Shown one piece after another: positions 33,310 to 36,111 of a stretch of 64,000 bases of DNA. Under the pieces are notes generated by a model. That model had not been told where the DNA came from. It worked only from the letters and a program-made list of their open reading frames with translations, and ran no database searches. Within the stretch, counting starts at the first letter, position 1, and the number at the start of each line of letters is the position of its first letter. The stretch comes from a virus: positions 10,705-74,704 of IMG/VR virus record IMGVR_UViG_3300025913_000030. One strand, written 5' to 3'. The position numbers and the translations under genes are program-made.

Positions 33310-33350
33310 AAAGAGAACCGCCCCAGTCGGCCTCGACGACTGGGGCGGTC
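33310..33350 (-). terminator. Intrinsic terminator ending the Ro/Y RNA/tRNA unit
   Basis: ACCGCCCCAGTC...GACTGGGGCGGT followed by TCTCTTTT on the minus strand. Confidence 0.75.
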
Positions 33351-33351
33351 C

Positions 33352-33535
33352 AAGTCTGGCTGATCAACTGCCTGCCGTGTCCTAGCAGATCCTCGCGGAT
33401 GGCGCGCGCACCGTCCTTGAATCAACTACCCGGAGCTGACGAGGCTCCTTGAACCACTGCAAACAGGCGGGGGAAGACCGCAGCAACCTTACTCCCGCTT
33501 TGACCCGCGCCCCTCACCGGTCAAGGCTACTCACG
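33352..33535 (-). ncRNA. Candidate structured ncRNA downstream of tRNA-fMet
   Basis: No credible ORF; hairpins TTGACC/GGTCAA, GCGGG/CCCGC, GGAGC/GCTCC, ATCC-GCGA-GGAT; ends at a terminator. Confidence 0.45.
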
Positions 33536-33543
33536 CGGATATG

Positions 33544-33617
33544 TGGCAGGGATGGGATTTGAACCCACGACCTTCGGGTTATGAGCCCGACGAGCTACCG
33601 AACTGCTCCACCCTGCT
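33544..33617 (-). tRNA. Initiator tRNA-fMet (CAT)
   Basis: AGCAGGGTGGAGCAGTTCGGTAGCTCGTCGGG-CTCATAA-CCCGAAGGTCGTGGG-TTCAAAT-CCCATCCCTGCCA; 1:72 mismatch and three G-C pairs in the anticodon stem. Confidence 0.93.
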
Positions 33618-33722
33618 GTGAACCGGATTGCCGCCCCCGGCTCTGCTGGCCCATACACCTCAGCACGGTCCGGCTTCCCGGACTTACCTAGCCAGCCCCG
33701 CACATCCGAGGATGCGTCCACC
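33618..33722 (-). ncRNA. Candidate ~105-nt structured RNA between Ro60 gene and tRNA-fMet
   Basis: Ends pair (GTGGAC/GTTCAC, CGGAT/ATCCG); internal GTCCGG-GAAG-CCGGAC and TGCTG/CAGCA arms. Confidence 0.4.
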
Positions 33723-33725
33723 ACC

Positions 33726-35453
33726 TTACATCGAGCGGCGCGCCTCGTGCAGCAGCTCCTGCACGTTGTCGTCCGTGCGCGGCGAGCGCAGGAACCCGGA
33801 GACCAGCTGCGGCAGCGCCGCGTCGAATCCAGCCACCTGCAGCACACCCTGCTGCTTCGGGTCGGCGATCGAGTGGCCGGCCGCGGTCATCGACGCGACG
33901 ATGACGCGCGCCTGCGGATTCACCGACGAACGGTAGCCGTCCAGAGCCTGGCTCGGGTGCTGGTACCGGCCGGCCCACGTCTCGTTGTCCGTCAGCACCA
34001 GGAACCCGTCGACCGCGATCCGCTGGGAAGCGGCCCACTCGAACGGGAGTGACAGGTCCGTCCCGCCGCCGCTCGGCTGCCAGGACGCGATCTCGCGCAG
34101 GTTGGTGCGCGGCGTGACCCGCGACCTGCGCACGGCGGTGTCGACGTCGATGACGTGGACGTTGCCCTTCTCGATCCGGGACATCGCCGCCGCCATCCCG
34201 CACGCGATCTCGTACGGGGAGCCCAGGGGCGAGCCGCCGAGCACGACCCGGCCGCCGAAGCCGTTGGACATCGACCCGGACGAGTCGACCGCGACCAGCA
34301 GCCGCTTCCCCGAAGGCTCGACGTAGCCGAAGGAGAGCTCGTAGGCCTCCTCCAGCGCATCGGAGATCGCCGCGAGCGGTGTCCAGGTGCGCAGCGGCGC
34401 CTTCGGGTTGGGCTGCGCTGCCCCCGAGTTGTAGACCTTCAGGGCGAGGTAGACGTCGAGGGGGTGGATGCGCGCCTTCTTCAACGCCTCGCCGTCGGTC
34501 AGCCGGCGTACGACCGTCGAAACGGCCTCGCCTCCATAGGGCTTGAGAGCCGCGATCCTGGTCATCCGCGCGAGATTGCGGATCAGGGCCGTCATGCCGA
34601 CCGTCTCGGTCAGCGCTTCCCAGACCTCGGGCGAGTCGAGTACCGCGTCCGGCAGGAACTCCCACGGCACGCGCAGGGTCCGCACCGCGGTGACCGCCTC
34701 CTTCGGACCTGTGACCGCCTTGGCGATCCGGTACTTCTCCACGCTCGGCAGCACCAGGGCCGCCTGCTCGTCCGGAACGTTGCCCGCGAGCCAGCCGAAC
34801 AGGGCGTCGGTCGCCGGGTCCATCTTGATCAGCGATGGCTTCGCGAGGCGCAGCATGTCCCGCAGGGCGAAGGGCTCGCCGCTGCCGGTCTTGCGCGAGC
34901 GGGCCTTGCACGCCCGGAACGCGATGCGGTCCGCGTCGTCGGCCAAGAACCAGTCGGCCAGAGCGCCGCGCATCAGCCGGTTCATGACCGGCGCGATGCC
35001 CTTCCCCGAGGGCTTGCCCTTGAGGTTCTTGTAGTAGCCCCAGAAATGCGCGAAGTGGTCGGTGGTGCGCGCGATCGATGGCAGCGCACCACGCGCCGCG
35101 CGGCGCGCGTCCAGGTCGCCTCGGGCGAAGGCCGCGGCGAGGACGAAGAGGGCCGGGAAATTCTTCGGCGCGCGGCCGGCGGTGCTGACCTCGGTGGCCA
35201 GCTGGACCGCGCGGCAGCCATCAGCCCCGATCGCGTCGAAGACCACCTGCGCGTTGGCGAAGGTGTGCTCCTTCTCCCCGACGTAGTAGGTGCCGCCGGT
35301 CGTGCCGAGGATCAGGAAGTCCTCAAGCTTCGTCCAGAGGTCCTTGCCGAAGGTGAAGCCGCCCGCGTTGTTGCGGACCATCTCGGCCTGGCGGCCGGGG
35401 ATCGGCTCGGTCTGCGGCGTGCGCACGGTGCTGACCATGGACAGGGCGTCCAT
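33726..35453 (-). CDS. rsr: Ro60/TROVE-domain RNA-binding protein
   Basis: N-terminal TPQTEPIPG..VRNNAGGF..FLILGTTGGTYY; MTALIRNLARMT, ARIHP; vWA MIDAS DSSGSM, GGTD, LTDNETW, AGFD; RBS GAAAGGA. Confidence 0.95.
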   Translation of the reverse strand: MDALSMVSTVRTPQTEPIPGRQAEMVRNNAGGFTFGKDLWTKLEDFLILGTTGGTYYVGEKEHTFANAQVVFDAIGADGCRAVQLATEVSTAGRAPKNFPALFVLAAAFARGDLDARRAARGALPSIARTTDHFAHFWGYYKNLKGKPSGKGIAPVMNRLMRGALADWFLADDADRIAFRACKARSRKTGSGEPFALRDMLRLAKPSLIKMDPATDALFGWLAGNVPDEQAALVLPSVEKYRIAKAVTGPKEAVTAVRTLRVPWEFLPDAVLDSPEVWEALTETVGMTALIRNLARMTRIAALKPYGGEAVSTVVRRLTDGEALKKARIHPLDVYLALKVYNSGAAQPNPKAPLRTWTPLAAISDALEEAYELSFGYVEPSGKRLLVAVDSSGSMSNGFGGRVVLGGSPLGSPYEIACGMAAAMSRIEKGNVHVIDVDTAVRRSRVTPRTNLREIASWQPSGGGTDLSLPFEWAASQRIAVDGFLVLTDNETWAGRYQHPSQALDGYRSSVNPQARVIVASMTAAGHSIADPKQQGVLQVAGFDAALPQLVSGFLRSPRTDDNVQELLHEARRSM

Positions 35454-35498
35454 CGTGGTTTCCTTTCGAGGATTCAACACGGCCGGGGCCGGACGCGA

Positions 35499-35533
35499 AC
35501 CGGCCCGCACGAGGGGGTGTCGTGCGGGCCGGT
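35499..35533 (-). terminator. 14-bp hairpin between Y RNA array and Ro60 gene (terminator/attenuator)
   Basis: ACCGGCCCGCACGA-7nt-TCGTGCGGGCCGGT. Confidence 0.6.
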
Positions 35534-35538
35534 CAGGG

Positions 35539-35667
35539 GACGGATGCGGGAGTGACTACCGGGTTTAAGCGTCTTAGGCCGCTAGACAACCAATCCCGAG
35601 GGATTGGACGGGATTCGAACCCGCGTCTCTCCTTTGCAAGGGGTAACCGATAATCGTTCAACCCGTC
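35539..35667 (-). ncRNA. yrlA: Y RNA (YrlA-like), permuted tRNA module with Cys-like loop TTGCAAA
   Basis: GACGGGTTGAACG...; T arm GCGGG-TTCGAAT-CCCGT, closed acceptor hairpin CCAATCC-CTCG-GGATTGG, D arm GTCT..AGAC, terminal stem. Confidence 0.85.
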
Positions 35668-35680
35668 GGTGGTGCGAGGT

Positions 35681-35811
35681 GAGCGGATACGGAGGGCGGC
35701 CACCGGTGTTAAGTGCTCTGCCAATTGAGCTACGCACCCGAAGGTGCGACGGGACTTGAACCCGCAACCACTCTCTTAACAGGAGATAACCGACGGCCTT
35801 TCAACCCGCTC
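35681..35811 (-). ncRNA. yrlA: Y RNA (YrlA-like), permuted tRNA module with Asn-like loop CTGTTAA
   Basis: GAGCGGGTTGAAAG...; TCTC-CTGTTAA-GAGA, T arm, CGCACC-TTCG-GGTGCG, D arm GCTC-AATTGGCA-GAGC. Confidence 0.88.
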
Positions 35812-35843
35812 GATCGAGCCGTCAGGCTCGGCGATTCACGAGT

Positions 35844-35980
35844 GTCCGGATGCGGTGTCGACCACCGGGTTTTAGCGCTCTACCAGTTGAGCTACCCATA
35901 CGGATCTCTCCGTTTGGACGGGATTCGAACCCGCAACCTCTCGAACCAGAATCGATAACCGACGGTCATTCAACCCGGAC
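35844..35980 (-). ncRNA. yrlA: Y RNA (YrlA-like), permuted tRNA module with Gln-like loop TTCTGGT
   Basis: GTCCGGGTTGAATG...; TCGA-TTCTGGT-TCGA, T arm, acceptor hairpin with GAGA loop, D arm GCTC-AACTGGTA-GAGC. Confidence 0.88.
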
Positions 35981-36005
35981 CAGGCTCACTGTGTTCAGTT
36001 GTCAG

Positions 36006-36075
36006 CGGAGCAGATGCGCAAAGCTGGTCCCCGGAGTCATCAGCCAGATAACCGAGAGCCTTTCAACCCGCTCCG
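36006..36075 (-). ncRNA. Short Y RNA lacking the tRNA module
   Basis: Same 5' CGGGTTGAAAGG..TCGGTTATC and 3' GCATC motifs; terminal stem CGGAGC/GCTCCG. Confidence 0.72.
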
Positions 36076-36081
36076 AGAAAG

Positions 36082-36111
36082 ACAGTACAGGGCGACGTGA
36101 CTATCCGTCAA
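36082..36111 (-). promoter_or_regulatory. Promoter plus operator driving the Y RNA-Ro60 unit
   Basis: TTGACG-18-TACTGT containing GATAGTCAC; first Y RNA starts 6 nt after the -10. Confidence 0.78.

Follow-up and report, generated by a model that had tools for sequence, protein, structure and literature searches.

A 74.7-kb viral genome, IMG/VR record IMGVR_UViG_3300025913_000030, encodes a compact unit of RNA genes centered on the RNA-binding protein Ro60. We think it fairly probable that this unit is a phage copy of an actinomycete-type Ro60 locus that was rewired to the phage's own promoter, was extended by a transfer RNA (tRNA), and would serve as an RNA maintenance set during infection. 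The stretch analyzed here (the window) is 64,000 nucleotides (nt) long and corresponds to bases 10705–74704 of the record, which has direct terminal repeats and was judged 100% complete. The window has a G+C content of 68%, and the phage genes encoded include those for a portal, a capsid, a family A DNA polymerase, a helicase, a tyrosine integrase and a GntR-type regulator; these virion, replication and integrase genes, together with the G+C content, indicate a temperate tailed phage with a high-G+C actinomycete as its host. When the nucleotide sequence of the locus was compared with 50,697 phage records, no close relative was returned, with the tRNA alone being matched. Two IMG/VR contigs, L003 (94% complete) and L008 (64% complete), encode Ro60 proteins 75% and 81% identical to that of the window, respectively, and served as the relatives for comparison.

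Read along the minus strand, the unit consists of a promoter-like site, four Y RNAs (Y1–Y4), a 14-bp hairpin, the Ro60 gene, a spacer, a tRNA with a CAT anticodon, a trailer and a terminator (Table 1). The Y RNA array, Ro60 and the same tRNA are all retained in L003. The gene after the unit starts with an ATG at position 33282, 7 nt past the sequence TACTCT; this leaderless-type start is kept in both L003 and L008 and marks the end of the unit. From this layout, we conclude that the RNA and protein elements form one compact unit, with a phage promoter motif and a strong terminator as its predicted boundaries. Most of these parts had been listed in an earlier model-made reading of the same letters (the original prediction). 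Its four Y RNAs, 14-bp hairpin, full 575-aa Ro60, structured spacer, initiator tRNA, terminator, distant RNA ligase and second CAT tRNA were all found by the analyses described below. A structured region of ~185 nt that it had placed after the tRNA did not hold up, and the single promoter/operator that it had placed before the array is present at 36111–36082 but belongs to a generic motif rather than to a Ro-specific operator.

Table 1. Features of the Ro60 unit and of two unlinked RNA-related genes. Positions are those of the window; bit scores given as "model" refer to covariance model R1; aa, amino acids; MIDAS, metal ion-dependent adhesion site.
Feature	Position	Strand	Evidence and remarks
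Promoter-like site	36082–36111	-	-35 TTGACG (36111–36106), 18-nt spacer with phage-wide ATAGTCACG box, -10 TACTGT (36087–36082); read from sequence
Y1, short Y RNA (69 nt)	36006–36074	-	Ro-binding terminal stem, no tRNA-like domain; fold; model 37.4 bits, E 5.5e-7
Y2, YrlA-like with tRNA-like domain	35842–35981	-	Rfam YrlA 36.1 bits; model 126.9 bits; covarying stems
Y3, YrlA-like with tRNA-like domain	35679–35812	-	Rfam YrlA 50.7 bits, E 1e-9; model 136.1 bits; covarying stems
Y4, YrlA-like with tRNA-like domain	35536–35669	-	Rfam YrlA partial, 22.2 bits; model 124.1 bits; covarying stems
14-bp G+C-rich hairpin, no U tract	35499–35533	-	Candidate partial terminator or processing/stability element; read from sequence
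Degenerate Y-RNA-helix copy	35472–35494	-	GUCCGGCC-CC-GGCCGUGUUGAAU, just 5' of ribosome-binding site AAAGGA; GUUGA motif as in the lineage's Y RNAs
Ro60 (Rsr)	33726–35453	-	575 aa, vWA MIDAS DSSGS; Pfam, PHROG 850, PDB 2nvo/1yvp/9nen, NCBIfam, tree
Structured spacer/tRNA leader, 108 nt	33618–33725	-	Fold z-score -1.82; conserved in L003
Initiator-like tRNA-CAT	33543–33617	-	ARAGORN; Rfam tRNA 64.8 bits; sequence
Non-coding trailer, 191 nt	33352–33542	-	Neither structured nor conserved
Intrinsic terminator	33306–33351	-	15-bp stem (33351–33315), then UCUCUUUUC; conserved in L003 and L008
Minimal Rnl2-like ATP-dependent RNA ligase	60724–61494	-	256 aa, motif I KVDG; PF09414, PHROG 548, fold; 25 kb from operon
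Second tRNA-CAT (elongator Met or Ile2 type)	185–259	-	Own promoter-motif copy upstream; ARAGORN, Rfam

The Y RNAs lie 83–621 nt upstream of Ro60 on the same strand, within the 4-kb distance used by Chen et al. (2014), and share a repeated pattern, GGGUUGAA..UCGGUUAYC, with a closing CCGGU...CAUCCG. Their scores against the Rfam YrlA family (RF02553) are all below its gathering score of 69 bits (Table 1). We built a covariance model, R1, from nine long Y RNAs (three of them Y2–Y4 of the window), in which the scores of 124–136 bits for Y2–Y4 are high by construction. Y1 was outside the training set and was recovered by the model at 37.4 bits. RNAalifold applied to the nine long Y RNAs gave 34 base pairs, 14 of them with compensatory changes, in a fold with two stems, the first of them terminal, followed by a T arm, an acceptor-like stem and a D arm, which is the layout of YrlA (Chen et al., 2014; PMC4201824). 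The covariation, and the detection of Y1 by a model untrained on it, confirm the four predicted Y RNAs. A scan of the 64 kb with R1 gave no other significant match, the trailer included.

Searching IMG/VR with the Y-motif pattern returned only L003 and L008, which have four and five Y units upstream of Ro60, respectively. With R1, we obtained 99 matches in 79 viral Ro60 loci. Each of these has the same orientation as Ro60, nearly all are just upstream of the gene, and they often form arrays of 3–5. A further 161 matches came from 60 bacterial loci, where the typical arrangement is one short (~72 nt) and three long Y RNAs. These bacterial loci belong to Nonomuraea, Streptosporangium, Actinomadura and their relatives, with Ro60 proteins 59–66% identical to that of the window. 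Judged by this arrangement, the one-short-plus-three-long array of the window is inherited from the layout of the Streptosporangiales Ro60 locus. The Ro-binding motif separates the two groups: all 13 Y RNAs of the phage trio (the window, L003 and L008) have GUUGAA, a departure from the GNCGAA consensus, and 127 of the 132 Y RNAs at non-trio loci have GUCGA.

The protein encoded downstream of the array matched the Pfam families vWA_Ro60 (PF25045, 1.1e-37) and TROVE (PF05731, 2.5e-19), and aligned with the Rsr protein of D. radiodurans (2nvo) over residues 8–532 (E 4.3e-79). Its vWA domain contains VDSSGSM, which has the DxSxS form of a MIDAS, and its score against the NCBIfam Rsr model NF041674 (355 bits, E 5e-106) is under the equivalog cut-off of 900 and marks it as a clear homologue. 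Ro60 matches were found in 354 of the 50,697 phage records, almost all of them from actinophage, with at most 40.5% identity to the Ro60 of the window; among the records listed, the protein is annotated as Ro-like or as an RNA-binding protein. In a Ro60 tree, the phage trio formed a fully supported clade within a fully supported actinomycete clade, apart from the 47 other viral Ro60 proteins included. By this placement, the Ro60 of the window groups with Ro60 of Streptosporangiales and Actinospica and not with the other viral Ro60 sampled. Given the host-type array and gene layout, the simplest reading is that Ro60 and the Y array were captured from a host. As a separate observation, three loci listed as viral in IMG/VR encode a Ro60 protein identical to one on a bacterial contig (L007 and L112, Actinomadura rubrisoli; L006 and L131, Nonomuraea basaltis; L014 and L118, Sphaerisporangium album); the contigs of L007 and L112 are moreover of equal length (104,490 bp), and the viral status of L007, L006 and L014 is uncertain.

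The promoter-like site upstream of Y1 was recognized by reading the sequence and was not listed by a generic consensus promoter scan. The core of the motif, TTGACnnATAGTCACG (16 nt), occurs 15 times in the window (for example, at 112–127, 368–383, 28288–28303, 39133–39148, 45129–45144, 54303–54318, 57019–57034 and 57597–57640), where 0.17 copies are expected, and 19 times genome-wide. Most copies have TAnnnT 17–18 nt downstream and are oriented with the direction of the genes. A ribosome-binding site directly adjoins some of the copies, and near the integrase/GntR region a pair of them is arranged as an inverted repeat; the TTGACnnATAGTCACG box probably serves as an operator too, which would make this a combined family of promoters and repressor operators. 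The motif serves the phage for control in general and is not specific to Ro60. L003 and L008 also have it upstream of their Y arrays, and the position of the -10 element in the window predicts a transcription start at G36074, the first base of Y1.

Between Y4 and Ro60, the 14-bp hairpin has a counterpart at the matching place in L003, and hairpins with a U tract that resemble terminators follow the Y RNAs in L008 and in the unrelated contig L178. Predicted hairpins thus recur where the Y RNAs give way to the protein genes, taking the form of a canonical terminator in L008 and L178. In the window, the Ro60 ribosome-binding site (AAAGGA, 35466–35461) and start codon (ATG at 35453) leave a hairpin-to-start distance of 45 nt. 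Because no promoter fits in this interval, Ro60 would be made by read-through of the hairpin and the Y RNAs should outnumber the Ro60 mRNA; an excess of Y RNAs, which the original prediction had proposed, is plausible.

The Ro60 leader itself contains a degenerate copy of the Y RNA helix (Table 1). An intact form of this element, CAYAUCCGCC-loop-GGCGGGUCGAA, is present in 38 distinct leaders, namely those of L003 (3960–3987), L008 (3965–3992) and 36 further loci, nearly all of them bacterial (alignment A3). With its stem, AUCCGCC/GGCGGGU, the element reproduces in a loop-closed form the terminal helix CGGGU/AUCCG that is invariant among the Y RNAs, and the Ro-binding consensus GNCGAA comes next. 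Across the alignment, 99.2% of the cells in the helix are paired, and three pairs show compensatory changes. We used this motif-based analysis because automated detection of hairpins upstream of Ro60 gave too much noise, with many matches inside Y RNAs. The variable dinucleotide of the motif is the same in leaders as in Y RNAs: the UC of the 127 non-trio Y RNAs is also found in 37 of 39 non-trio leaders, and the UU that is universal in the Y RNAs of the phage trio is also found in all three of its leaders. The leader motif changes with the Y motif by lineage, arguing that the same protein reads both, and this suggests that Ro60 autoregulates its own translation via the Y-RNA-like leader helix, a candidate operator. 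Several observations weigh against this interpretation. The mimic in the window is degenerate, with one mismatch and a 2-nt loop; the co-variation of leader and Y motifs represents a single evolutionary event in one lineage; and GNCGA(A/G) is not clearly enriched in the leaders of distant viral Ro60 genes, where 8 instances were seen and 5 expected. An incomplete literature check found no earlier report of leader autoregulation or of a link between the ligase and TROVE proteins, and we regard the leader mimic as the most original lead to come from the locus.

The shared leader and Y RNA motif also bears on an alternative in which the locus is a passive host gene set, with Ro60 and its Y RNAs providing a general benefit in stress or RNA turnover, and the tRNA and ligase being unrelated accessory genes. 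We consider this unlikely. A host-like Ro60 and the four-Y layout are what such an explanation has in its favor, as are the tRNA, which varies or is absent at this position in relatives, and the ligase, which is unlinked here and mostly stands alone in bacteria. However, the derived GUUGA motif is common to every Y RNA and leader of the phage lineage, and therefore points to continued selection within phages. The module is also wired to the phage promoter family, and finding the ligase beside Ro60 is far commoner than the overall frequency of Ro60 among phage records (354/50,697) would lead one to expect.

The tRNA downstream of Ro60 has an anticodon stem-loop, UCGGG-CUCAUAA-CCCGA, with the CAU anticodon and the three consecutive G-C pairs of an initiator. 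Positions 1 and 72 are unpaired, as in initiators, but as A1·C72 instead of C1·A72; the same is true of the tRNAs in L003, L170, L171, L173 and L108. In L003 (5979–6053), the tRNA has compensatory changes in two stems and is therefore under selection. Besides several actinophage contigs, a cluster of tRNA genes in Actinoplanes has the A1·C72 acceptor variant, and so does L108, a Nonomuraea contig with the title plasmid, where a tRNA-CAT at 4730–4806 follows Ro60 and has its own operator; the variant may be specific to mobile elements. In L008, the region 5705–5861 instead holds a tRNA-like gene of 80 nt that reads CGA in its anticodon, has a long variable arm and an A2·C71 mismatch, and follows a TTGACG promoter copy of its own, and several other viral loci have real tRNAs of varied identity beside Ro60.

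The separate promoter in L008 and operator in L108 count against a single unit, since they mean that the tRNA is not invariably co-transcribed. They lend some weight to the idea of an RNA-gene island, in which Y RNAs, Ro60 and tRNA are made and matured independently and are clustered for common processing enzymes; so does the frequent location of Ro60 in or beside phage tRNA arrays. In the window and in L003, the interval from Ro60 to the tRNA is free of the promoter motif, the gap between the hairpin and Ro60 is merely 45 nt, and one strong terminator closes the unit. Overall, we judge such an island to be quite improbable, and retain the view of a single rewired locus.

The sequences around the tRNA differ in their conservation. 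The spacer upstream of it shows three compensatory pair changes in L003, spread over two helices. Matches to an 18-mer of the spacer in six other viral contigs all derive from one unrelated phage promoter region, and were set aside as chance. Downstream of the tRNA, the trailer, which corresponds to the ~185-nt region of the original prediction, had a fold z-score of +1.31, with 186 of 200 shuffled sequences folding at least as well, and is replaced by unrelated sequence in L003 and L008. It has no Y-like match either, the best overlapping R1 match being over the tRNA (12.7 bits, E 0.32). L003 (6054–6185) and L008 (5862–5995) have in common a trailer of ~130 nt after the tRNA that is unrelated to that of the window and has no Rfam match. 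The terminator that closes the unit is a G+C-rich stem of 15 pairs followed by TCTTTTCAGT. At the other end of the window, the second tRNA-CAT has a leader of ~105 nt (260–365) whose first bases, GCGGCUGGUG, pair with CACCAGCCGC just before the tRNA; an RNase P cut would free this leader as a closed structured RNA.

We next consider the RNA ligase gene, which the original prediction had tied to Ro60 and the tRNA as a partner acting in trans. The protein matched PF09414 at 47.8 bits (cut-off 27), and in its motif TEKVDG the E, K and G are invariant across nine homologues, with D replaced by N in three. Its predicted structure (mean predicted local distance difference test score, 82) is nearest to T4 Rnl2 and to the nick-sealing ligase of Naegleria (matches 2hvr and 1s68); the model matches the adenylyltransferase domain 1s68 (233 aa) and only part of full-length Rnl2, and the C-terminal domain that T4 Rnl2 needs for nick sealing is not present. 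A sequence match was found in neither PDB nor NCBIfam, such that the placement comes from the fold search only.

The ligase family matched six phage records only. In Streptomyces phage JustBecause, the ligase gene lies 20 nt upstream of that for a Ro-like protein, after tRNA genes and a Y-like element; this ligase (AYD81305.1) is of the "rare divergent" actinophage type (PMC7824862). Two of the eight IMG/VR contigs with the minimal ligase have Ro60 (L178 and L181), both in the order Y RNA, ligase, Ro60, and three planctomycete contigs (L197, 1188–10545; L211, 3909–9761; and L198) have a large tRNA array (~30 tRNA matches in L197), then the ligase, YrlA-like RNAs and Ro60, all in the same orientation, with the look of a phage-type RNA island. 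More broadly, 17 of 50 Ro60 contigs contain a PF09414 match, which is an assignment at the level of PF09414 as a whole; the 16 best-scoring matches are all in frames of 215–404 aa. Weak Ro60-like matches beside the Dactylosporangium ligase (26% identity, opposite strand) were not taken to be Ro60. The open reading frames that flank the ligase in the window have no relatives near its homologues.

Other findings argue against a link between the ligase and Ro60. The two are 25 kb apart; the ligase stands alone in most of 80 bacterial loci; and neither L003 and L008 nor 12 further Ro60 records contain a PF09414 ligase. Moreover, the complete genome has no RtcB (PF01139), AAA_33-type kinase or metallophosphatase, and with no end-healing enzyme found, breaks with cyclic phosphate ends would therefore not be repairable. 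The co-occurrence of TROVE protein, ligase and tRNA that had been proposed as a check is thus seen as recurrent neighborhoods in phages and planctomycetes, but is not obligate, and the closest relatives are without the ligase. We conclude that the association of ligase and Ro60 is recurrent rather than obligate, and that the window appears to hold a dispersed version of it.

These neighborhoods also speak for an anti-defense function, of the kind put forward in the original prediction, in which the Y RNAs and Ro60 would protect tRNAs, the phage tRNA would replace a cleaved initiator and the ligase would carry out repair, all directed at toxins of the host that attack tRNAs, such as VapC. The recurrence of tRNA arrays, ligase family, Y RNAs and Ro60 in distant elements fits this idea, as does the response of Ro60/RtcB operons to damaged tRNAs (PMC7790460). 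The A1·C72 tRNA variant, present on several phage contigs, is also in keeping with it. Rnl2-type ligases require 3'-OH and 5'-phosphate ends. Metal-dependent PIN nucleases are expected to leave such ends. By contrast, the anticodon arm of the phage tRNA is canonical and gives no hint that it evades VapC or other nucleases acting on the anticodon loop, so that a nuclease of this kind should cut the phage tRNA too. The ligase is missing from the closest relatives, end-healing enzymes are absent from the genome, the tRNA of L008 is of a different type, and neither a defense gene nor a toxin target has been identified. We consider an anti-defense function improbable.

A rhizosphere metatranscriptome contains single contigs that are near-identical to the window over 35530–36065 (Y1–Y4) and over 33358–33701 (spacer, tRNA and trailer), at a depth of 10–11. 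Pieces of Ro60 in the same metatranscriptome have a depth of 2.5–4.9, and Ro60 and flanking genes together have a depth of 2.5–6.9. Small shares of the stretch are present in runs X3–X7. These contigs are a weak hint of transcription: they may partly reflect carry-over of DNA, and ends, strand and level cannot be read from them.

Under the reading that we favor, a rewired actinomycete-type locus, transcription would begin at the first base of Y1, and host RNases would free the four Y RNAs and the tRNA, with read-through past the 14-bp hairpin giving the Ro60 mRNA. Particles of Ro60 and Y RNA would tether the host exonuclease PNPase to structured or damaged RNA, as in studied systems, and the initiator-like tRNA would enlarge the initiator pool. 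The unlinked Rnl2-like ligase would seal nicks with 3'-OH and 5'-phosphate ends in structured RNA. Ro60 would limit its own translation at the leader helix unless titrated by Y RNAs, through an element that is weakened in the phage of the window. More tentatively, as a reading that is less likely than not, we propose a joint extension. First, Ro60 of the actinomycete clade and its phage copies would be autoregulated by the leader hairpin (helix plus GNCGAA), with free Ro60 blocking translation and Y RNAs relieving the block. Second, tRNAs, the minimal Rnl2-like ligase, Y RNAs and Ro60 would make up a mobile set that recurs and serves the quality control and repair of tRNAs, dispersed here and accompanied by the A1·C72 initiator tRNA.

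The function of Ro60/Y RNA particles is poorly understood in bacteria and even less so in phages. The locus and its relatives offer a compact natural system, with defined Y RNAs, a lineage-specific Ro60 motif, a candidate feedback element and a ligase family that accompanies Ro60 across phyla. If the leader operator is real, Ro60 would join, as a new case, the RNA-binding proteins whose control runs through a mimic of the RNA that they bind. A true link between ligase, Ro60 and tRNA would extend the repair theme of RtcB and Ro60 to ATP-dependent ligases in phages, and would provide testable parts for the conflict between phages and tRNA-targeting defenses.

Elsewhere in the window, most neighboring open reading frames lack a Pfam match. 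Upstream of the Ro60 operon and in the same orientation, two sigma-factor-like genes (37444–37737, PHROG 3282; 38332–38841, PHROG 1740) follow the promoter-motif copy at 39148. A glycosyltransferase cluster with an NAD-dependent sugar epimerase occupies 25441–29320, between the virion genes and the leftward genes.

Phage Ro60 genes with Y RNAs have been published before (PMC4201824; PMC12135203), and TROVE proteins are known from phage RNA repair sets (PMC7824862). The core of the locus, phage Ro60 with Y RNAs, is thus of a known kind, and the locus as a whole is an enriched form of an RNA-maintenance module already known from phages. As in the mycobacteriophage ET08/Catera cluster (PMC4201824) and in Thermus phage phiLo, where in vitro the Y RNAs bind both Ro60 and the PNPase of the host (PMC12135203), Y RNAs with a tRNA-like domain precede Ro60 on the same strand. 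Unlike in those phages, the Ro60 of the window groups with actinomycete proteins, at no more than 40.5% identity to the Ro60 of the 354 phage records; there are four Y RNAs, with GUUGAA for GNCGAA, and a co-oriented initiator-like tRNA comes before the terminator. The chromosomal loci of Streptosporangiales (Nonomuraea, Streptosporangium and Actinomadura) resemble the window in having one short and three long Y RNAs followed by Ro60, the terminal helix CGGGU/AUCCG, and a leader hairpin adjoining the ribosome-binding site. They differ from it in the sequence of Ro60 (59–66% identity), in having GUCGAA, and in having no extra hairpin after the last Y RNA, and they usually have no downstream tRNA, L108 with its A1·C72 tRNA-CAT being the exception.

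Among the single components, the tRNA resembles bacterial tRNA-fMet in its CAU anticodon, its three G-C pairs, A11:U24, G2:C71, C3:G70, A73 and the unpaired 1:72, and is unlike it in having A1·C72 for C1·A72, an A:U pair at 4:69 and no encoded CCA. The ligase has the nucleotidyltransferase fold (Foldseek E 3e-9, template modeling score 0.55) and the KxDG lysine motif of T4 Rnl2 and the Naegleria gruberi RNA ligase, but it is only 256 aa long and 14–18% identical, and lacks both the C-terminal domain found in Rnl2 and the N-terminal domain found in the Naegleria enzyme. Lastly, the Salmonella rsr-yrlBA-rtcBA operon, which is tied to tRNA damage (PMC7790460), likewise combines Ro60, Y RNAs and an RNA ligase. 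Unlike that operon, the window has no RtcB (RtcA and RtcR were not searched for), and its ligase is ATP-dependent, Rnl2-like and unlinked; in other phages, this same Rnl2-like family takes the place in the operon beside Ro60.

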